Part shown: piece after piece, positions 11,330 through 42,996 of the stretch
How the letters are laid out: every line of letters begins with the position of its first letter
How positions within the stretch are numbered: position 1 is the first letter of the stretch
DNA from: a phage
Length of the DNA: 44,682 bases
Sequence record: PX123008.1
Direction: 5' to 3' (one strand)
The notes under the pieces: model-generated
What the model saw: only the letters and a program-made list of their open reading frames with translations
Told to the model about the DNA's origin: nothing
The model's database searches: none
Made by a program: the position numbers and the translations under genes

Positions 11330-11692
11330 ATGGCTAAAGCACCACTCTTCACACTTGACCCTAAACCAACCTTTAAGCTGCCGATTGAGATCCCGCGCCC
11401 TGGTGAGAACGAACCCGGCAAGATGACGTTTACCGTACGCCACCGCCCGATCGACGAATTTTCGCAGACCATGCAGGACACTGAGCGCAAGCTATCGGAA
11501 TATGACGACAATGACCCGGACGGCTTTAACGTTATGGTCGAGGCCATCATGCACGTCGCTGAAGGCTGGAACCTGCCGGACGAATTTAACGCGGAGAACG
11601 TCCGCCGCCTGGTGGTCAACTATCCACGTGCGTTCGGTGTGTTCCACACGTCGTACTATCTCGAACTGATGGGATTGCGTGAAAAAAACTAA
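11330..11692 (+). CDS. tail assembly chaperone (lambda gpG-like)
   Basis: 120 aa, acidic, directly upstream of the tape measure gene; ends with slippery heptamer A_AAA_AAC 3 nt before the stop. Confidence 0.65.
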   Translation: MAKAPLFTLDPKPTFKLPIEIPRPGENEPGKMTFTVRHRPIDEFSQTMQDTERKLSEYDDNDPDGFNVMVEAIMHVAEGWNLPDEFNAENVRRLVVNYPRAFGVFHTSYYLELMGLREKN

Positions 11693-12006
11693 TTGAGGCG
11701 GCGCGACGCTTTTATGGCCCGCCGCCACCCTCTGAAGATTTAGCCGCAAGTTTATGGGGTGCGGCCCCCGAAGATGTTTGTCCGCCTGTTGCGCTATGGC
11801 CCGACAACGCGAAGGTAGTCGCAGTCTTCACAGATTGCTCCACGCAATGGCGCACCGGATTTGGTGGCGCATACGGCATCGACTACGGCGTGCTGGAGTG
11901 GTTATTTAAGATGCACGGTATCGAAAACGCGCAACGTGCGTTTAAAGATATCAAGCTAATGGAACGCGTTGCGCTGGATGAAATGGCGCGGCAGAACCCC
12001 GCATAA
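11330..12006 (+). CDS. tail assembly chaperone, -1 frameshift extension product (lambda gpGT-like)
   Basis: slippery A_AAA_AAC at 11683..11689 in the 0 frame; the -1 frame is open from 11689 to the TAA at 12004..12006, about 105 codons. Confidence 0.55.
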
Positions 12007-12010
12007 CGGA

Positions 12011-12327
12011 GCGGGACAGGCGGGACGTCCCGTTTTGTCCCGCACCTCTAAAACTGCATATTTACCCACTTACATTGCATAGATTAAAAGCGGGACAGGG
12101 GTGCTGTCCCGATCTGTCCCACCCCCGAAATGTGAATGTCTATTCAGTTTTCGTGCATAAAACAAACGGGACAGAAAGCGGGACAGAATGAGGCGGGACA
12201 AAGCGGGACAGCACCCCTGTCCCCGCCAGTGCTGCCGCGGGTTTTTAGCCGATCGGGACAGGCGGGACAAGCCCAGTCTTTCAGACTAGACGGGGGTCAT
12301 TGGCCCCCCTCGTCTGAGACTGAATAA
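12011..12327. repeat. iteron cluster A: ~8 direct and 4 inverted GCGGGACA copies plus a conserved ~60-bp terminal hairpin
   Basis: GGGACA at 12013, 12092, 12168, 12180, 12195, 12205, 12255, 12264; TGTCCC at 12036, 12105, 12115, 12218; terminal segment nearly identical to 39366..39430. Confidence 0.85.
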
Positions 12328-12390
12328 GGTTTGTTTTAAATTCGCTGATACAATGACCAACGGCAACTGCATAAAAAGGGGGACTGCATA

Positions 12391-15033
12391 ATGGCAGATC
12401 AGGCAGCGGGCATCACGCTCAAGGCGGACGTCGCGCAAATTAAAACGGCTAATACTGTGCTGGACACATTTGCGCAGAAATCCGAGAACACAGAACAGAA
12501 AGTAAAAAAATTAAACGACACCCTCGGCAAGTCGAAAAAGGTTACTGGCGACGCTGCGGGCGGAATGGAAAAGTTAGCGACTGAATCGCAGCGTGCCGCC
12601 GATGGCATGACGAAACAAGAGCGACTCGCCAGCCGATTAGGCATGTCGACCAAAAACCTGGGATTCGCATCGCGGAACGCCGCATTCCAGTTACAGGATA
12701 TCGCGGTTACGCTTGAGATGGGTATGCCGGTGCACCGCGTTATGCTTCAGCAGCTACCACAGCTTACTGGGGCGTTTGGCGGGTTGGGTAACACACTGCG
12801 TTATGTCGTCGGCACCCTCGGCCCGTTAGGTATCGGCATCGCGGCCTTGACGGCAACGCTTGGCGTAGGGGTGGCAATTACGACCCGCGCAGAGAACCAA
12901 GTGGCGGCGCTTAATAAGACGCTGGCGCTGTCCGGTAATATTTCGGGCCTCACAGCTAACCAGATCCTTGTGCTGTCCGAGAACGCTGAGCGCATGGGCG
13001 GGTCATTTCGCAAGACGCGCGACACAATCCAGGCGCTGGCGGCGGCGGGTGTGAAAGCGGGTGGTGACTTCGGCGCATTGGCTAAGGTAGTTAATGACTT
13101 TGCGAAGGTGTCCAGCCAGCCGATCGAGGATGTGGTAGCGGCGGTGGCGAAGCTGTCAACCGACCCCGTTGGCGGACTGCGTGCGCTGGCGGATAAGTAT
13201 CACGTCGTAAACGAAGCGCAGATCCAGCAGGTACAGTCGCTCGTTGATGCGGGTCGTGAGACAGACGCAGTTGCGTTGGCTAACAAAACAGCCGCTGCGT
13301 CGTTCACCAGCATGACCAATGAGATCAAGGCGAACATGGGTACGCTTGAGCGGTCGATGAACGTCGTCACATCGGCAGCCAAATCGATGTGGGACGCTAT
13401 CCTGGATGTGGGTCGCGCGCAGTCCTCCAATGAATCCGAGATGAAAGCGCGCGAATCACTGCAGCGGCTGACCACGGCTTACTATGCCGAGATGAAAGCG
13501 GTAAACGCTGCCGGTGGGGTAATGACTGAAGCGCAGAAAGCACGTATTAACATGCTTTACAGCGAACTGGTCGCCCAGGAAAAAGTGGTGGCGTCGCTCA
13601 CCCTGCGTAACCGTGCCGAGCGGGACAACGCCAGCGCCGCGGAAGAAGCAGCAAAGGCGAACGAGGAGGCCAACCGCACCGCCCGCGACCGCGCCGCGTT
13701 TGAGAAGGAGTACGCAACCAACGCGAAGCGGCGCGCCGACGAGATCGCCCGCCTCAATTTGCTGAATAAGCGTGGCGTTATTGACGAGAAAGAGCTTGCT
13801 GAGGCGGTGAAGCAGGTCAACGAGCGCTACAAAGACCCGGCACCGAAGAAGGCCGCGGCTGTTCGCGTGGATGCAGGGATGAAAATGCTGGAAGTCGCGC
13901 GCAGCGAACTGGCACAGCTTCGAGAATCAGGCAAGCAGATCGAAGCCAACGCGTCGACGCAGACCCGCACGCAACGCGCTCAAGCGGCCCTAAACAAGCT
14001 GATCGCGGATAATGAGCAGTTAATCGCAGCAAGCAAAGAAAGGGCACTAACGGCAGCAGAAAAGCAGCAGATTGCAGAATTCGGACGCGTGAAGGAAGTA
14101 CGCGAGCAGATCGTCGAAGAAGCCAAATTGCTGGACGCGAAAGAGAAGCAGGTCAAGGCGCACGCGCAGATCGACGCCTTCGTTAAGAACCAGAACGCCG
14201 AGCTAAAAGCCACCGCGGCGGGCTATGCGCTTTCCACTCGCGAAGCGGCAAACCTGCGTGAAGAATTGCAGCTAATTGACCGCCTGAAGCGGGTTGGAGC
14301 TAACGATACTGATATTGATCTGGCGGTATCTAAGCTGCGCGAAGTGCAGGAAGCACAGACCGGTGCTAACGCCTCGCTATGGGATGGCTTCAGCCGCGGG
14401 CTTAAGGATAGCGTGGATGAAATGGGTAACGGCTATACGCAGATGACGTCACTCACAAAATTCACGTTCGGCGCTATGCAGGACACGATGAACGAGTTTT
14501 TTGAGACGGGCAAGCTGAACGCAAAGGATATGGTTAAATCCATCCTGAGCGAATTAATAAAGCTGGCTACCTCGCAGGCATTCAAGTCCATCGTTAGCGC
14601 TTTCGGTGGCGACGGCGGAAAAAACGGATTGTTCGGCGCTATCTTCTCGGGCCTCACTAAGAATGCGGACGGCGGAGCGTACGCAGGAGGCAATCTCGCG
14701 GCATATTCGGGGAAAGTGGTAAGCCAGCCTACCTTTTTCAGTTATGGCGTTCAGGCGTTCGCTAAGGGCGCGGGATTGATGGGCGAGGCTGGACCCGAGG
14801 CCATCATGCCACTGAAGCGCGGGCCGGACGGGAAACTGGGTGTTGCCGCGTCTGGCGCAGGCGGTGGTATGGTCGTGACGACTAACGTTTACACGGGGTC
14901 CGGTAAAACAGATACCAGTGTCAGCGGGCCGGACCCCCGTACCGCGCAGGCGTTCGGCAAGCAAATCACCGAAGCGGTGAAGGCCGAGATCGTGAAAGCG
15001 ACGAAACCGGGTGGTGTACTTTACAAACGATGA
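12391..15033 (+). CDS. tail tape measure protein
   Basis: 880 aa, alanine-rich coiled-coil-like with a glycine-rich C-terminal region; follows the G/GT-like chaperone. Confidence 0.85.
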   Translation: MADQAAGITLKADVAQIKTANTVLDTFAQKSENTEQKVKKLNDTLGKSKKVTGDAAGGMEKLATESQRAADGMTKQERLASRLGMSTKNLGFASRNAAFQLQDIAVTLEMGMPVHRVMLQQLPQLTGAFGGLGNTLRYVVGTLGPLGIGIAALTATLGVGVAITTRAENQVAALNKTLALSGNISGLTANQILVLSENAERMGGSFRKTRDTIQALAAAGVKAGGDFGALAKVVNDFAKVSSQPIEDVVAAVAKLSTDPVGGLRALADKYHVVNEAQIQQVQSLVDAGRETDAVALANKTAAASFTSMTNEIKANMGTLERSMNVVTSAAKSMWDAILDVGRAQSSNESEMKARESLQRLTTAYYAEMKAVNAAGGVMTEAQKARINMLYSELVAQEKVVASLTLRNRAERDNASAAEEAAKANEEANRTARDRAAFEKEYATNAKRRADEIARLNLLNKRGVIDEKELAEAVKQVNERYKDPAPKKAAAVRVDAGMKMLEVARSELAQLRESGKQIEANASTQTRTQRAQAALNKLIADNEQLIAASKERALTAAEKQQIAEFGRVKEVREQIVEEAKLLDAKEKQVKAHAQIDAFVKNQNAELKATAAGYALSTREAANLREELQLIDRLKRVGANDTDIDLAVSKLREVQEAQTGANASLWDGFSRGLKDSVDEMGNGYTQMTSLTKFTFGAMQDTMNEFFETGKLNAKDMVKSILSELIKLATSQAFKSIVSAFGGDGGKNGLFGAIFSGLTKNADGGAYAGGNLAAYSGKVVSQPTFFSYGVQAFAKGAGLMGEAGPEAIMPLKRGPDGKLGVAASGAGGGMVVTTNVYTGSGKTDTSVSGPDPRTAQAFGKQITEAVKAEIVKATKPGGVLYKR

Positions 15034-36503: not shown

Positions 36504-36833
36504 ATGAATGTAAACGACGCAATCGAAATGTTAACGAAGACTGTTTGCAGTGAGACAAGCCGGTCATGGGCTTACACCGATGCCGTGGGGGCGGTGTTAT
36601 TTGAAATCGAACGACTGCGGCTTGCCGAAAAAGAATTGCGCGCCAGGCTGGAACTACTCAATGGTACGGCAGCCAGCAAGCTGCAAAAGCACAATGAAGA
36701 AATGGAAGAATACAAAAAACAGGTTATTCGTTTGCGCGATGAGGGGAAGTCATGGGCGATGATCGCCGAGCTAACCGGAATTAATCAGAGCACCGTGCGA
36801 TCCTGGGTACGCAATAATAAAACCTCTAAGTAA
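36504..36833 (+). CDS. helix-turn-helix DNA-binding protein
   Basis: 109 aa, GAGGA RBS; C-terminal HTH-like segment GKSWAMIAELTGINQSTVRSWVRN preceded by a coiled-coil; directly upstream of the primase-helicase gene. Confidence 0.55.
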   Translation: MNVNDAIEMLTKTVCSETSRSWAYTDAVGAVLFEIERLRLAEKELRARLELLNGTAASKLQKHNEEMEEYKKQVIRLRDEGKSWAMIAELTGINQSTVRSWVRNNKTSK

Positions 36834-36843
36834 GGCAACGGCA

Positions 36844-39108
36844 ATGAGCTTAATTAAATTCGCAGTAACACGACCCGCTAAAAAAGGCGAAAAAGCCAGG
36901 GCGGAAAACTTCCAGATGACCACCGATGAGTTTTTCGAATTTATCAAAGATGCGAAAGAAATCTCCTCGGTGCATATCAACAAGACGGAAGATAAAGCCG
37001 AGTATGCGCGCCGCAAGCGTAAGGCCGATGGCATCGTGGCGTATACCAGTGACGGATTGCGTCGTAAGACCAGTGCGGTGGACCGCTCGATCCTGTTCTT
37101 TGATATTGACCGCACAGACACCCGCACCCTGCGCCGCTGCCGTAAGGCGTTCATCGACGCGGGTCTGGAACACGTATTTCACACCACCACCGGCGATCGC
37201 CACCCGCTGAAGGGCGGCACGCGTTGCGCCCGTTTCCTGGTGCTCACTGACAAGCCTGTACCGGCTGAAGACCTGGGCCGCGTCCAGTATGCACTATTAC
37301 ACCAACTCGGCCTGTCAGATGTGGACTTCGATGATTGCACGAAAGACACAAACCGCCTTATGTACCTGCCTCACCAGCAATCGGTTGTTAAGTGTCACTA
37401 CGGCAAACGTGCCCGCGTCCGTCGTCTGCTTCGCCTGGCGGATAAGCTGGGAGTGAAAAAAGAGGAAGTACGCCGCGAATTAACCCAGGGCGATGACGGC
37501 GTGGCGGACGGCATTCTGGATTGGTGCTTCCAGGCAGGATTCGAACCGCTGTCGTCCGGTCGTGGTTATGAAGTGCCGTGCCCTAACGAACACCTGCACA
37601 GCGGCGAAGGGTCCACCGCTATCATGGTTAAGGATGGCGAGATCCGTTTCAAGTGTATGCACACCGGCAACGAGTGTTGCTCGGAACTGAATAGACACCA
37701 GCACCTGGCGCTACGTCTTATCGGGATCCCGGACCACCTGAACGTCGAACCGCACAACATGTCCCGCAAGCAAATCGCCGCCATCCTTCCGGGACTGGAC
37801 GACGAGGAAGTGGAATCGTGCTATGAACATATCGTTGATGCTGTTGGCGACGGCGAAGAATACGGCGTGTGCACCGATGCGGATCTGGATAACGAGCCGG
37901 TAGCGCTGTTTAGCAAGCACGACCCGATCATCGAGGGGCTGATTAACTTTAAATCGACCTGGTATCTTGCCGGTGAGTCGAACATCGGTAAGTCGTTCTA
38001 TGTGCTGGGCCAGATGGCGTCCGTATCTGCCGGTATCCCGTTTGGCGGTGCGAAGGTCGTCCAGTGCCATAACTTCTATTTCGACGCGGAAGGTGGTGAA
38101 GCCTCCAACCAGCGTAAGGAAGCATTGCAGATCAAATATGAGCACGACCTGGACAAGCTGCACATTATCGATCTGCAATCACGCGGCTGGGATATCACCA
38201 GCAAATCCGGCTTGCGTGAAGTTATCAGCTTCATCAACCGCACCGCTAACGGCGAACCGGTTGGCCTGGTGGCGTTCGACTCACTCAACCAGACTGTTGC
38301 GCTGCGGTCCGCCGATGCGAAGCCGTTCGACGAGAACAACGCCAGCGATATGGGCGAAGTGGTCAAAGCGCTGAAGGCCATCGCGGAAAATACAGGCGGC
38401 AGTGCGGGCGTCATCCACCACCCGGCGAAAGGTGCAAACGGCAGCAGAACGCCACGCGGGTCCGGCGCGCTTCATGGTGCTGTCGATTCTGCGTTCTTCC
38501 TGGAGCAACCGGACGACAATCAGCCCGGCCAATTGAACCTGTATCACGAGAAGGCACGTAACGGCATCAAGCAAGCGCCGCGCGGCTTCGTCCTGCTCAA
38601 GTGCAAGGTTAAGGTGGATCTCCGCAAGTCCGAAGCGTTCGAAGCCCACCAGTCCGCCAGCACCGGGCCGGACTTCGGCGATGTGGTTGCCGGTTGGGAC
38701 GTCAAGCCAATCGCATCCACGCCACGCGACGAGACTCTTTACCTCGTACCGGTCGCCCTGGCACCGTTCGCTATCGAACAGGCAAAGGCCGCTGGCAAAG
38801 CAGCAGTTAAGGAAGAGAACGCCGCAGGACCGCGCAACGAAAAAGAGAAAGTGCTTTATGCGGCGCTGGAAAAACTGATGGAAGATAACCCGGACCATAC
38901 CGGATTCAGTAAGTCGGCAATTGTCCGCCAGGCTGGACTGGCGAAAGGCGGCACATCGACGAAGGCAATCGACGATATGGTCGAGCGCGGCGTACTCGGT
39001 TTTTATACAGATCCGCACACCGGGGCCATCTATGGGTCGTCTAATATCGTCATAAAAACGAATATACCCATCACGCTTTCGGCGACCGATGACGACCTGA
39101 AAGATTAA
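36844..39108 (+). CDS. primase-helicase (AEP-type primase-polymerase domain + P-loop helicase domain)
   Basis: 754 aa; N-terminal ILFFDIDRTD acidic motif; central Walker A LAGESNIGKS and Walker B-like VAFDSL. Confidence 0.75.
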   Translation: MSLIKFAVTRPAKKGEKARAENFQMTTDEFFEFIKDAKEISSVHINKTEDKAEYARRKRKADGIVAYTSDGLRRKTSAVDRSILFFDIDRTDTRTLRRCRKAFIDAGLEHVFHTTTGDRHPLKGGTRCARFLVLTDKPVPAEDLGRVQYALLHQLGLSDVDFDDCTKDTNRLMYLPHQQSVVKCHYGKRARVRRLLRLADKLGVKKEEVRRELTQGDDGVADGILDWCFQAGFEPLSSGRGYEVPCPNEHLHSGEGSTAIMVKDGEIRFKCMHTGNECCSELNRHQHLALRLIGIPDHLNVEPHNMSRKQIAAILPGLDDEEVESCYEHIVDAVGDGEEYGVCTDADLDNEPVALFSKHDPIIEGLINFKSTWYLAGESNIGKSFYVLGQMASVSAGIPFGGAKVVQCHNFYFDAEGGEASNQRKEALQIKYEHDLDKLHIIDLQSRGWDITSKSGLREVISFINRTANGEPVGLVAFDSLNQTVALRSADAKPFDENNASDMGEVVKALKAIAENTGGSAGVIHHPAKGANGSRTPRGSGALHGAVDSAFFLEQPDDNQPGQLNLYHEKARNGIKQAPRGFVLLKCKVKVDLRKSEAFEAHQSASTGPDFGDVVAGWDVKPIASTPRDETLYLVPVALAPFAIEQAKAAGKAAVKEENAAGPRNEKEKVLYAALEKLMEDNPDHTGFSKSAIVRQAGLAKGGTSTKAIDDMVERGVLGFYTDPHTGAIYGSSNIVIKTNIPITLSATDDDLKD

Positions 39109-39183
39109 ATTTTGCGCGCGTTGGTTGCCGATATGGGAATTCCCATATCGCTAAAAGATTAATTTGTGCGCGCGTTGGTTGCC
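39101..39183. repeat. imperfect ~29-bp direct repeats bracketing a perfect 22-bp palindrome
   Basis: aagattaaattttgcgcgcgttggttgcc (39101..39129) and aagattaatttgtgcgcgcgttggttgcc (39155..39183) flank cgatatgggaattcccatatcg (39129..39150); the first repeat includes the primase stop codon. Confidence 0.85.
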
Positions 39184-39250
39184 ATTTTGAGTGTTTTTAG
39201 TTGGTCGCATTGGTTGCCGTGTAGTGTGAATATAATGAATAGTTATGCAA

Positions 39251-39430
39251 TAAAACTGCATAAACTAAGCGGGACAGAAAGCGGGACAAACAAGGGGCGG
39301 GACAAAGCGGGACAGCACCCCCTGTCCCGCCCGGATGGCGCGGCCTGGAGAGGAGCGGGACAAGCGGGACAAAGCCCAGTCTTTCAGACTAGACGGGGGT
39401 CAACGGCCCCCCTCGTCTGAGACTGAATAA
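39251..39430. repeat. iteron cluster B: 6 direct and 1 inverted GCGGGACA copies plus the conserved ~60-bp terminal hairpin
   Basis: GGGACA at 39271, 39283, 39299, 39309, 39357, 39366; TGTCCC at 39323; 39366..39430 nearly identical to 12264..12327. Confidence 0.85.
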
Positions 39431-39585
39431 AATCCGGAGATTGCAAAATACACGGCAGCATGATGCGAAGTGCGGTCGCGGATGAACTAGGCAACCAATG
39501 CTAGTTGCATTATGCGGAGTGGAAAACGCAGTTTGCAGTTACAGCAGATAGCGATCAACTTTTTCATGCGCGTGATTAATATTGG

Positions 39586-39614
39586 TTGCATTCACCCCGG
39601 CACCCTGCTATATT
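39586..39614 (+). promoter_or_regulatory. sigma70-like promoter (TTGCAT-N17-TATATT) with ATTGGTTGCA copies and a conserved leader
   Basis: hexamers read directly; leader GGTTGCACACCAACATGAGGA then ATG at 39643. Confidence 0.55.
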
Positions 39615-39642
39615 GGTTGCACACCAACATGAGGACTGAACA

Positions 39643-39840
39643 ATGGAACACGAAGACCTGGTCGACGAATTGCTTGAGCTGATTGAGGCTGAGAACAAAG
39701 CCGATTTGCAAGCACGCGCAGCATACATGGTCGGCAACATTAAGAAATCGCGCCACTACGCCGGATTGCGTGTAAAGGCGCAAGAGGCATTGCTGCAATT
39801 CCTGGACAGCGTAACCATCACGAAGAGGACTGAACGATGA
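39643..39840 (+). CDS. hypothetical early protein
   Basis: 65 aa, GAGGA RBS, first gene after the consensus-like promoter. Confidence 0.5.
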   Translation: MEHEDLVDELLELIEAENKADLQARAAYMVGNIKKSRHYAGLRVKAQEALLQFLDSVTITKRTER

Positions 39841-40142
39841 GAGCATTAATATGGAATTACACAATGGCTGTGGCGAAGCTGTATGAAGCAAAACACACTA
39901 ACGGCAACGCAGACGACGCGCGCCAGGCTGTCATCCTGGCCCAGCAGGGAATCATGAACGCGTTCGACGATATGTTTGCCAGCCTGGACGAACTGGAACC
40001 GCTGCGCGTGGCAATCTGCGAATATGCGATGGCATTTGCCCGTGAACGCCTGGCGTATCGCTTCGGGATCGGCGAGACGGCAGTGACAAACGTCGCCCGG
40101 ATTAAAGCCCAGCGCGAACTATTCGCCCAGCTTGCGAAATAA
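39837..40142 (+). CDS. hypothetical early protein
   Basis: 101 aa, ATGA overlap with the upstream gene. Confidence 0.45.
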   Translation: MRALIWNYTMAVAKLYEAKHTNGNADDARQAVILAQQGIMNAFDDMFASLDELEPLRVAICEYAMAFARERLAYRFGIGETAVTNVARIKAQRELFAQLAK

Positions 40143-42088: not shown

Positions 42089-42566
42089 CAACGGTCTAAG
42101 ATTTACGGCAGCATGGGAGACTTTCAGCCCAGTGCCGTATTTCGCGACTAAGAAAGAGCAGGCCCGCGGCCTGTACACCTGGGGATATGGTCACACCGGC
42201 ACTAACCCGCCTCGAAGCATTACCCGCGCGGAAGCGCTGGAGCTACTTAAGCGCGATGTGGCGTATGCTGAGGACTGGGTGAATAAATACGCACATCCCA
42301 GCATCAACCAGGCGCAATTCGACGCGCTGGTGGACCTGGTAATCAATGCAGGTCCGGGTCCGATTGTACCGGATAACGTTGCCAATGACTTCGATGATGC
42401 GGTGCGCCTGGGTGACTGGGCGAAGGTCCGTGCTACTCTGCCACAGTTCCGCAAGCAAGGTGGGGAAGTGCTGAAGGGGTTAGTCCGTCGAGCAATCGGC
42501 AGGCAGGCGCTATTCGATGGTAAGCAGTGGGACGTTGCCGAGAAGATCGGACGTAACGCAGCATAA
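42075..42566 (+). CDS. endolysin, GH24 lysozyme family
   Basis: 163 aa; FSDNGLRF...WETFSPVPY...YTWGYGHTG and QAQFDALVDLVINAG match the phage lysozyme pattern from memory. Confidence 0.85.
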   Translation: MRFSDNGLRFTAAWETFSPVPYFATKKEQARGLYTWGYGHTGTNPPRSITRAEALELLKRDVAYAEDWVNKYAHPSINQAQFDALVDLVINAGPGPIVPDNVANDFDDAVRLGDWAKVRATLPQFRKQGGEVLKGLVRRAIGRQALFDGKQWDVAEKIGRNAA

Positions 42567-42582
42567 TACGGGGTAACACAGT

Positions 42583-42996
42583 ATGTTAAAAAGTATTCTT
42601 GATCATAACGCCGACGCGCTCGCCGCGCTGGCTAAAACCAAAGACCCAGGCGCACGCGCTATTGTAGCGGATACGATCAGCCATGCGGGGGTCTTCGACG
42701 CGAAGTTACCCAGCCCGCCGGAAAGTAAGCCGGTGACAAGTGCAACCGTAACTATCACACCGGAATCCGCCGCAGTTGGTGCGAAGGCCACCGCTTCGGT
42801 TGCGGTACAGCCATCCGACGCAACTAACAAGGCCGGGTCGTGGGTGTCGTCGAATCCTGCCTGCGCGGCAATCGATCAGACTACCGGAGAAATCACAGCC
42901 CAAACGGAAGGTAGCGCCCACATCTTTTGGGTGGCATCCGACGGCAGCGGGGTGCTAGCGTCCGCCATCTTCACCGTAACGGGGGCAGAAGAATAA
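42583..42996 (+). CDS. bacterial Ig-like (Big_2-type) domain protein
   Basis: 137 aa; C-terminal ~80 aa resemble a Big_2 fold (TVTITPESAAVGAKATASVAV...SWVSSNPACAAIDQTTGEITAQTEGSAHI). Confidence 0.55.
   Translation: MLKSILDHNADALAALAKTKDPGARAIVADTISHAGVFDAKLPSPPESKPVTSATVTITPESAAVGAKATASVAVQPSDATNKAGSWVSSNPACAAIDQTTGEITAQTEGSAHIFWVASDGSGVLASAIFTVTGAEE

Follow-up and report, generated by a model that had tools for sequence, protein, structure and literature searches.

Why should the tail operon of a siphophage hold, directly in front of its tape measure gene, several hundred non-coding bases filled with copies of one short motif? The question is raised by sequence record PX123008.1, a stretch of 44,682 nucleotides referred to below as the window, which represents a complete genome of a Dhillonvirus, an Escherichia coli siphophage related to HK578, JL1 and SSL-2009a. 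The gap in question, here called element A, occupies positions 12007-12390 of the plus strand (384 bp), and a related array, element B, is located behind the primase-helicase gene (36844-39108, plus strand). Judged from sequence comparison and predicted folds, A and B are probably two copies of a cis-acting replication element, the boxes of which would be read by a winged helix of the primase-helicase, with B as the origin and A as a second loading site. The repeats in the gap most likely represent a second binding site for the replication initiator and not a feature of the tail genes. On the best reading, B would be the canonical origin, and A either a second origin or an enhancer similar to the cis-replication region (crr) of phage P4.

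Anatomy of element A

Element A fills the whole interval between the TAA stop codon (12004-12006) of the tail assembly chaperone frameshift open reading frame (ORF) and the ATG of the tape measure gene (12391). A previous description based on the letters alone (the sequence-only reading) had recognized this non-coding gap and given its length as 385 bp, one base more than is found. The box GCGGGACA occurs 17 times in exact form in the window, against 2.1 copies expected, and none of 100 shuffled sequences reached this number. Seven of the copies are located at 12011-12269 (six on the plus and one on the minus strand) and seven at 39269-39371. The sequence-only reading had counted eight direct and four inverted copies between 12011 and 12269; these numbers are correct for the six-base core GGGACA, while the exact GCGGGACA is present there in six direct copies and one inverted copy. 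The three palindromes that it quoted are all present: cgggacgtcccg (12021-12032), gggacaggggtgctgtccc (12092-12110) and gcgggacagcacccctgtcccc (12203-12224).

The boxes, 7-8 bp long with the core CGGGACA, form three clusters (12011-12043, 12090-12122 and 12167-12269) at a spacing of 9-16 bp, mostly as pairs 9-10 bp apart, and their number is far above expectation. The first cluster, on the plus strand like the other two, is composed of the direct boxes GCGGGACA and GCGGGACG, the palindrome GGGACGTCCC and one inverted box; it has no counterpart in element B of this genome, and the GGGACGTCCC form recurs in the elements of a sister lineage. It is separated by an AT-rich spacer (12044-12089; 70% AT versus 45.7% for the genome) from the second cluster, which consists of the palindrome CGGGACAG-GGGTG-CTGTCCCG and one further inverted core. 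This palindrome (12090-12111) is the reverse complement of the one located at 12203-12226. A further spacer of 64% AT (12123-12166) precedes the third cluster, the core iteron array that is homologous to B, with direct boxes starting at 12166, 12178, 12193 and 12203, the palindrome GCGGGACAG-CACCC-CTGTCCCCGC (12203-12226) and a direct pair from 12253 and 12262.

The third cluster is followed by an imperfect hairpin (12274-12322, plus strand) of the form CAGTCT..AGACGGGGGG-loop-CCCCCCTCGTCT..AGACTG. The sequence-only reading was right about its imperfect pairing, and its span amounts to 49 nt instead of the proposed 60 bp or so. The hairpin is stable on both strands, with a predicted folding energy of -13.4 kcal/mol as DNA (z-score -4.0) and of -32.9 kcal/mol as RNA in a 78-nt context (z-score -4.9). 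Past the hairpin, a conserved stretch (12346-12367, plus strand) contains TGATACAAT, which resembles an extended -10 element, and then the octamer ACGGCAAC. The small ORFs overlapping element A are not conserved and match no PHROG family. An 85-codon open frame is present in most copies of B; the A copies vary in frame and length, and again no PHROG match was obtained.

Element B and its relation to element A

Element B lies in the non-coding gap that follows the primase-helicase gene (39109-39642, plus strand). Its iteron array (39269-39371, plus strand) begins 160 bp past the stop codon of that gene, while element A, which is not adjacent to the gene, carries the same box. Direct boxes start at 39269, 39281, 39297 and 39307, and are accompanied by a palindrome at 39307-39330 and a direct pair from 39355 and 39364; a stretch of 77% AT (39225-39268) is placed directly upstream of the array. 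The terminal hairpin of B (39377-39425, plus strand) has the same stems as that of A, with the loop AACG in place of ATTG.

In alignment, 12140-12340 and 39240-39440 share 88% identity, and the hairpin stems are identical. The sequence-only reading had regarded B as a second copy of the whole element; the duplication is real, but B corresponds only to the right half of A (about 12167-12327), i.e. the third cluster and the hairpin. The left half of A (12011-12122) represents an additional pair of iteron clusters. A perfect 22-bp palindrome, CGATATGGGAATTCCCATATCG (39129-39150), has also been noted just upstream of B, between two copies of TTGGTTGCC.

Conservation within Dhillonvirus

The existence of both elements has already been flagged in one GenBank record, that of Sodalis phage SO-1 (NC_013600), in which the same two gaps are annotated as repeat_region “region A” and “region B”. 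The record mentions direct, inverted and palindromic repeats as well as the mutual similarity of the regions, and describes a function merely as “possible”. No paper analysing regions A and B and no functional study of them was found in the literature (a paper on Avs2/Ksap1 has no bearing on them), and the replication origin of Dhillonvirus is undescribed.

The sequence-only reading had called for a comparison with related genomes, and the element proved to be conserved. A query of 601 bases around A matches 159 phage records at 80-97% identity, nearly all of them in two places, and element A is present in at least 151 of the 159 Dhillonvirus records. Comparison of both copies in 13 Dhillonvirus genomes revealed that the boxes and both hairpin stems are invariant. 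Among 21 distinct copies the stems likewise do not change, with a loop that is hypervariable in sequence and length. The sequence GCTGATACAAT, similar to an extended -10 element and located downstream of A, is invariant in the 13 A copies; the likeness comes from the sequence alone, and a consensus promoter scan did not flag the site. One variant of the last box pair turns up here and there in the A and B copies of different genomes, a patchy distribution that points to sequence exchange between A and B within the genus. The element was also searched for in 72,556 plasmids and 5,426 E. coli genomes without any match, and a host mobile element or a repeat of the repetitive extragenic palindromic (REP) type has been ruled out on this ground.

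Concerted change of both elements in other lineages

A second copy located between the tail chaperone and tape measure genes, with the lineage's own box, has been found in four lineages: Dhillonvirus together with a sister lineage, Edwardsiella phage eiAU, the P0018 contig and the P0022 contig. The sister lineage has an element A with CGGGAC(A/G) boxes upstream of its tape measure gene. Phage eiAU has one element behind its helicase-primase gene and another in the interval from gp16 to the tape measure gene. The two elements share the box CGCCCCG, with 88% identity between their cores, and a GC hairpin closes the second. The P0018 and P0022 contigs have, in front of the tape measure gene, a gap with GGGAT-type boxes and then a GC hairpin; in each contig the boxes match those of the element on the helicase side. 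Analogous GC hairpins are present at the same place in eiAU, L275, L398 and L399. This lineage-matched change of both copies is the strongest argument for one lineage-specific reader and for a functional A: since both copies change their box in concert, the same factor would be expected to read A and B.

In some relatives one or two reverse-strand ORFs lie between the chaperone gene and A (L276, 10674-11054; L277, 10674-11422; L400, 1353-2101; eiAU, 42365-42718), which physically breaks up the tail operon at this point.

Such insertions count in favour of A as a functionless duplicate of B, i.e. a selfish or accidental copy deposited at a permissive spot of the tail operon, as the gap between the chaperone and tape measure genes takes up reverse-strand ORFs in relatives. 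This explanation is nevertheless highly improbable. It leaves unexplained that A is kept in nearly all Dhillonvirus records and in four lineages with a protein identity of only some 40-60%, that the boxes of A and B change together, and that boxes and stems stay invariant while flanks and loop drift; the negative plasmid and E. coli searches also speak against it.

The hairpin raises a different possibility, namely that it forms with its flanks a structured RNA (a small RNA, an RNA stabiliser or a put-like antitermination signal) present twice in the genome, with the boxes being secondary. Phage HK022 has two such sites, putL and putR, which the presence of two copies per genome recalls. Invariant stems, a hypervariable loop and one compensatory pair fit selection on pairing; the pair is a change in the sister-lineage hairpin from AGACG/CGTCT to GGACG/CGTCC, read from the sequences and from single-sequence folds, as MAFFT shifts the 3' arm of the sister lineage by one column. 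However, a DNA hairpin or cruciform would give the same pattern, and the covariation is a single event common to three related sequences. The Rfam 15 scan of the whole window at the gathering threshold gave no match, and the tRNA and transfer-messenger RNA scan of the window found no genes. Moreover, the palindromic box unit is present in both orientations (12090-12111 versus 12203-12226), which argues for a DNA-level signal in the array. Altogether, a structured RNA is considered very unlikely to account for the two elements.

Box arrays beside initiator genes in unrelated phages

The association of CGGGACA arrays with particular genes was investigated in IMG/VR, where a scan for two GCGGGACA boxes 1-12 bp apart returned at least 120 loci. 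Among the matches listed, 59 of 120 loci hold 5-18 copies of CGGGACA within 400 bp at 9-12 bp spacing, against 9 of 120 listed loci for a composition-matched control box, mostly in tandem or coding repeats. The 59 array loci have a GC content of 38-72%. Three of them are Dhillonvirus contigs, and the remaining 56 have no similarity to the window at the nucleotide level.

When the ORFs within 5 kb of these 59 arrays were clustered into families, the commonest family was that of homologues of the window primase-helicase, found at about 28 of the 59 listed loci, and in nearly all of them the array is located just 3' of the gene. On unrelated contigs the layout behind primase-helicase genes is conserved and comprises 3-7 direct boxes and then a palindrome built of a box, a short self-complementary spacer of varying sequence and 1-3 inverted boxes. 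In the second family (15 of the listed loci), the array lies inside the ORF of a protein of about 250 residues with a winged-helix-like region at the N-terminus. Further listed arrays come after the gene of a P4-alpha-like Toprim/D5_N/DUF5906 protein, as on the metagenomic contig L097, or after that of a Zn-ribbon/Toprim protein, or are placed inside the gene of a DUF1376 protein. The same pairings of array and initiator are present in prophage-like regions of bacterial genomes. Arrays within ORFs encode Ser-Gly-Thr-rich linkers, as observed at L028, L032, L037, L049, L054, L055, L057, L059, L069, L076, L077, L084, L087, L104, L117 and L121.

These pairings also bear on the packaging (pac) and partition roles that the sequence-only reading had offered as alternatives. 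The arrays would then be sites of the small terminase subunit TerS, or partition centromeres for a protein of the ParB or SopB type. With their inverted copies they are similar to P1 pac and to the sopC sites dispersed in N15, and many deposited genomes have their ends at A or B or within about 1 kb of them: MK373791 (WFI), NC_073081 (Sponge), NC_073063 (PNS1), MN158213 (BEK2-2), NC_073078 (welsh), NC_073059, NC_073077 and KF772233 (eiAU). Since the breaks fall at both A and B, as a repeat of about 190 bp would cause in assemblies, they are likely to be assembly breaks and not physical ends. In addition, terS (21-572) is separated from A by 11.4 kb and from B by 5.3 kb, the proteins that were scanned include neither ParA nor ParB, and the arrays of unrelated contigs go with genes of replication initiators and not with terminase genes. 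A packaging or partition role is thus left without support, and we give it hardly any credence.

The primase-helicase as candidate reader of the box

The presumed reader, a protein of 754 residues, contains an AEP primase fold in residues 1 to about 205, a Cys/His motif (246-287) and a region (357-531) matching AAA_25, a helicase of the RepA type. The predicted fold of the primase is that of an RSF1010 RepB'-like AEP. A winged helix is predicted with a pLDDT of 85-95 at residues about 666-740 (nucleotides about 38839-39063), and it is followed by an acidic C-terminal tail. The last 100 or so residues are the least conserved part of the protein, with 16% identity to eiAU versus 50-70% in the helicase core. 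The tail itself, SATDDDLKD (39085-39105), is kept across lineages while the domain preceding it varies. T7 gp4 and gp2.5 carry polymerase-binding acidic tails, and the tail described here recalls them; the phage also encodes a gp2.5-like single-stranded DNA-binding protein and a Pol I.

In the closer relatives examined, which represent nine lineages, a non-coding gap of 360-900 bp follows the primase-helicase gene, and each has its own repeated box. With P0008, whose protein is 69% identical to that of the window, the box GCGGGACA and the hairpin are the same. The boxes of the remaining lineages are TCTCCCC for Salmonella phage vB_STM-ZS (46% identity by MAFFT alignment, 44% by tblastn), CGCCCCG for eiAU (42%), ACTCGCAA for P0015 (49%), TCGCAA for P0016 (48%), GGGGATC palindromes for P0018 (46%), AGGGAT(AAA) for P0022 (46%), AGGGATAAA for P0103 (43%) and TTCCGCACA for P0023 (47%). 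The opening residues of helix 3 of the predicted domain vary with the box: GG-TSTK or GG-TNTT with CGGGACA, GG-DRYK with TCTCCCC, GG-(K/G/N)RRP with GGGAT-type boxes and NYKK or HYGK with TCGCAA-type boxes.

The elements show three features of an iteron origin: (i) phased short boxes; (ii) an AT-rich stretch (64-77% versus 45.7% for the genome); (iii) a link in cis to an initiator gene, with a lineage-specific box. The proposal of the sequence-only reading that the arrays have an origin-type function exerted through the primase-helicase is strongly supported by sequence comparison, through the adjacency to initiator genes in unrelated phages, the lineage-specific boxes and their concerted change; this support does not extend to the role of A itself. 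The initiation process might proceed as follows: the winged helices would dock onto the phased boxes, the helicase would assemble at the palindrome, the AT-rich spacer would be melted, and the extruded hairpin could then act as a start signal for the primase domain, like the ssi hairpins of RSF1010. A dimeric binder, as suggested in the sequence-only reading, is only one possibility. The boxes are mostly arranged as head-to-tail pairs 9-12 bp apart with few inverted sets, and a cooperative or oligomeric loading of a hexameric helicase fits this arrangement equally well or better.

Another candidate for the general binder has been rejected. The 109-residue protein encoded upstream of the primase-helicase gene (36504-36833) carries at its C-terminus a helix-turn-helix (HTH) with matches to sigma-70 region 4 and HTH_23; public records label the protein “transposase”, and distant lineages have a gene with a Cro/C1-type HTH_3 instead. 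The 109-residue protein is missing in eiAU, vB_STM-ZS and Kagunavirus as well as at every CGGGACA locus outside Dhillonvirus; being confined to loci of the Dhillonvirus type, it cannot be the general reader of CGGGACA.

Contrary observations and transcription control

Several observations weigh against a replication role or against the proposed reader. The association between box and helix 3 is confounded by phylogeny, and the small HTH gene upstream of the primase-helicase gene also varies between lineages. Within the primase-helicase family, helix 3 is TSTKAIDDM in the window versus RKAFxRA in the metagenomic CGGGACA group, and a comparison of the initiator families found beside CGGGACA by hidden Markov models and hhalign gave no significant common DNA-binding domain. 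Because helix 3 differs and no such domain is shared, the reader of the box could be another factor. Phage vB_STM-ZS, with a different structural module, has one array only; therefore a second site is not generally needed by this type of replisome. The turning points of the cumulative GC skew, at about 24 kb and 35-36 kb, coincide with switches of gene orientation and not with A or B; as the skew follows gene orientation, it is uninformative on the origin. Finally, A and B both head late-gene blocks, with conserved promoter-like sequence after each, and in phage T1 a terminator is annotated at the junction of the chaperone and tape measure genes.

The last observations suit an explanation in which A and B would control transcription, as cassettes placed where operons meet. 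The hairpin would attenuate or end the upstream mRNA (that of the primase-helicase at B, that of the head and tail-tube genes at A), the boxes would bind a phage regulator, and a downstream promoter would restart the late block; at A, such a cassette would keep the tape measure and tail-tip proteins scarce relative to the tail-tube protein. Both copies are positioned directly upstream of plus-strand late-gene blocks, and in the sister lineage and eiAU, where reverse-strand ORFs separate the chaperone gene from A, the tape measure gene is probably dependent on a promoter of its own. The invariant GCTGATACAAT behind A and the stability of the hairpin as RNA are in agreement with this explanation as well. 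However, the hairpin is followed by GAATAA and lacks a U-tract, no plus-strand terminator was called in 11600-12700 or 38900-39900, and the promoter scans at A and B called no sigma-70-type promoter. The boxes, moreover, vary with the primase-helicase lineage, and in unrelated phages they occur beside or inside initiator genes, where a promoter or terminator within the ORF is unlikely. Transcription control is thus considered a rather unlikely explanation of the elements, and it could also operate alongside an origin function instead of standing in for one.

Comparison with known replication systems

Regarded as replication elements, A and B can be compared with several described origins. Phage P4 with its ori and crr has two features in common with the system described here: a single multifunctional primase-helicase with a C-terminal winged-helix DNA-binding domain (predicted for the protein of the window), and two clusters of one short iteron in direct and inverted copies, located kilobases apart on one replicon (here 12011-12269 in A and 39269-39371 in B). 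The sequence-only reading had drawn a comparison with the ori and cis-replication-region layout of some replicons, which is apt with regard to the two distant clusters of the same iteron. There are also differences from P4. The P4 alpha protein is composed of Toprim, D5_N and a superfamily 3 helicase, whereas the protein of the window combines an AEP primase with a helicase of the RecA type (AAA_25), so it is an analogue and not a member of that family. The P4 box is TGTTCACC, as opposed to CGGGACA, and the present sites are 17.6 or 27.1 kb apart with a hairpin at the end of each.

Plasmid RSF1010 resembles the system in its enzymes, a helicase of the RepA type (AAA_25) and a primase of the RepB' type, and in an origin consisting of iterons, an AT-rich stretch and hairpins; in its oriV the hairpin start signals are ssiA and ssiB. 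In contrast to RSF1010, in which the tasks are divided among RepB', RepA and RepC, they are fused here in one chain. The scans of window proteins gave no separate RepC-like match, and DNA binding is assigned, on the predicted model, to the fused winged helix. The RSF1010 origin contains 3.5 iterons of 20 bp and two ssi hairpins on opposite strands, while the present elements have boxes of 7-8 bp at 9-16 bp spacing and one hairpin each, in the same orientation in A and B. The system is thereby a member of neither family, being similar in function to RSF1010 and in layout to P4.

Iterons inside or next to the initiator gene are also known from the lambda ori in gene O, and the F1 and DUF1376 loci, with CGGGACA arrays in the ORFs of uncharacterised phages and prophages, repeat this layout. 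The ori of Staphylococcus aureus pathogenicity islands (SaPI) lies immediately 3' of the rep gene, as the present arrays lie immediately 3' of the helicase gene. Lambda and SaPI differ from the described system in their initiator families and boxes, and neither is known to have a second copy inside a structural operon.

Other repeated motifs

The octamer ACGGCARC is the most abundant 8-mer of the window, with 51 copies (39 on the plus and 12 on the minus strand) versus about 5 expected, a count reached in none of 100 shuffles. It is found about once per 1.1 kb on the plus strand, in all three codon phases, in genes and in gaps, and without a wider consensus; one copy follows each element (12360-12367 for A, 39452-39459 for B). 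It is 10-20-fold enriched in eiAU, in vB_STM-ZS (mostly on the late-gene strand), in a Kagunavirus and in all close primase-helicase relatives; for T1, control contigs and distant primase-helicase loci, the enrichment is no more than about 3-fold. The octamer might serve in priming or as a polar DNA signal of another kind.

The motif TTGGTTGC is represented by 21 copies, against about 1.4 expected, often as intergenic pairs and flanking B; eiAU has 23 copies. Its sites include 6411/6425, 25159/25171, 26832/26849, 33412/33428 and 36307, as well as 39121, 39175, 39210, 39491, 39582 and 39613 near B, and the variants GTTGGCCGC, GTTGGCAGC and GTTGGCTGC are located beside the iterons of other lineages. 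It has the appearance of an operator or promoter motif, the cognate factor of which would be better conserved than the protein reading the iterons; the small HTH protein encoded upstream of the primase-helicase gene is a candidate binder. A third repeat, GCGGGCTT (14 copies), was dropped, as it is placed mostly within coding sequence, often in Ala-Gly-Phe-like codon contexts.

Implications

A more far-reaching proposal, which we regard as unlikely, is that siphophages of the Dhillonvirus type use an IncQ-like machine in which primase, helicase and origin binder form one polypeptide, acting on two like-oriented origins of iterons and hairpin, one of them kept in the tail operon across at least four lineages, with ACGGCARC as a lagging-strand priming signal or other polar signal.

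Dhillonviruses are common E. coli phages, represented in the BASEL collection, in studies of defence systems and among therapy candidates. If the replication role of A and B is correct, these phages would gain a testable origin together with its initiator, and an origin-like site would be kept inside a structural operon with a specificity that shifts in step with the initiator. A box array located 3' of a primase-helicase gene and ended by a palindrome would then provide a rule for finding origins in uncultured phages, and winged helix and box, paired differently in each lineage, would represent natural orthogonal modules of origin and initiator.

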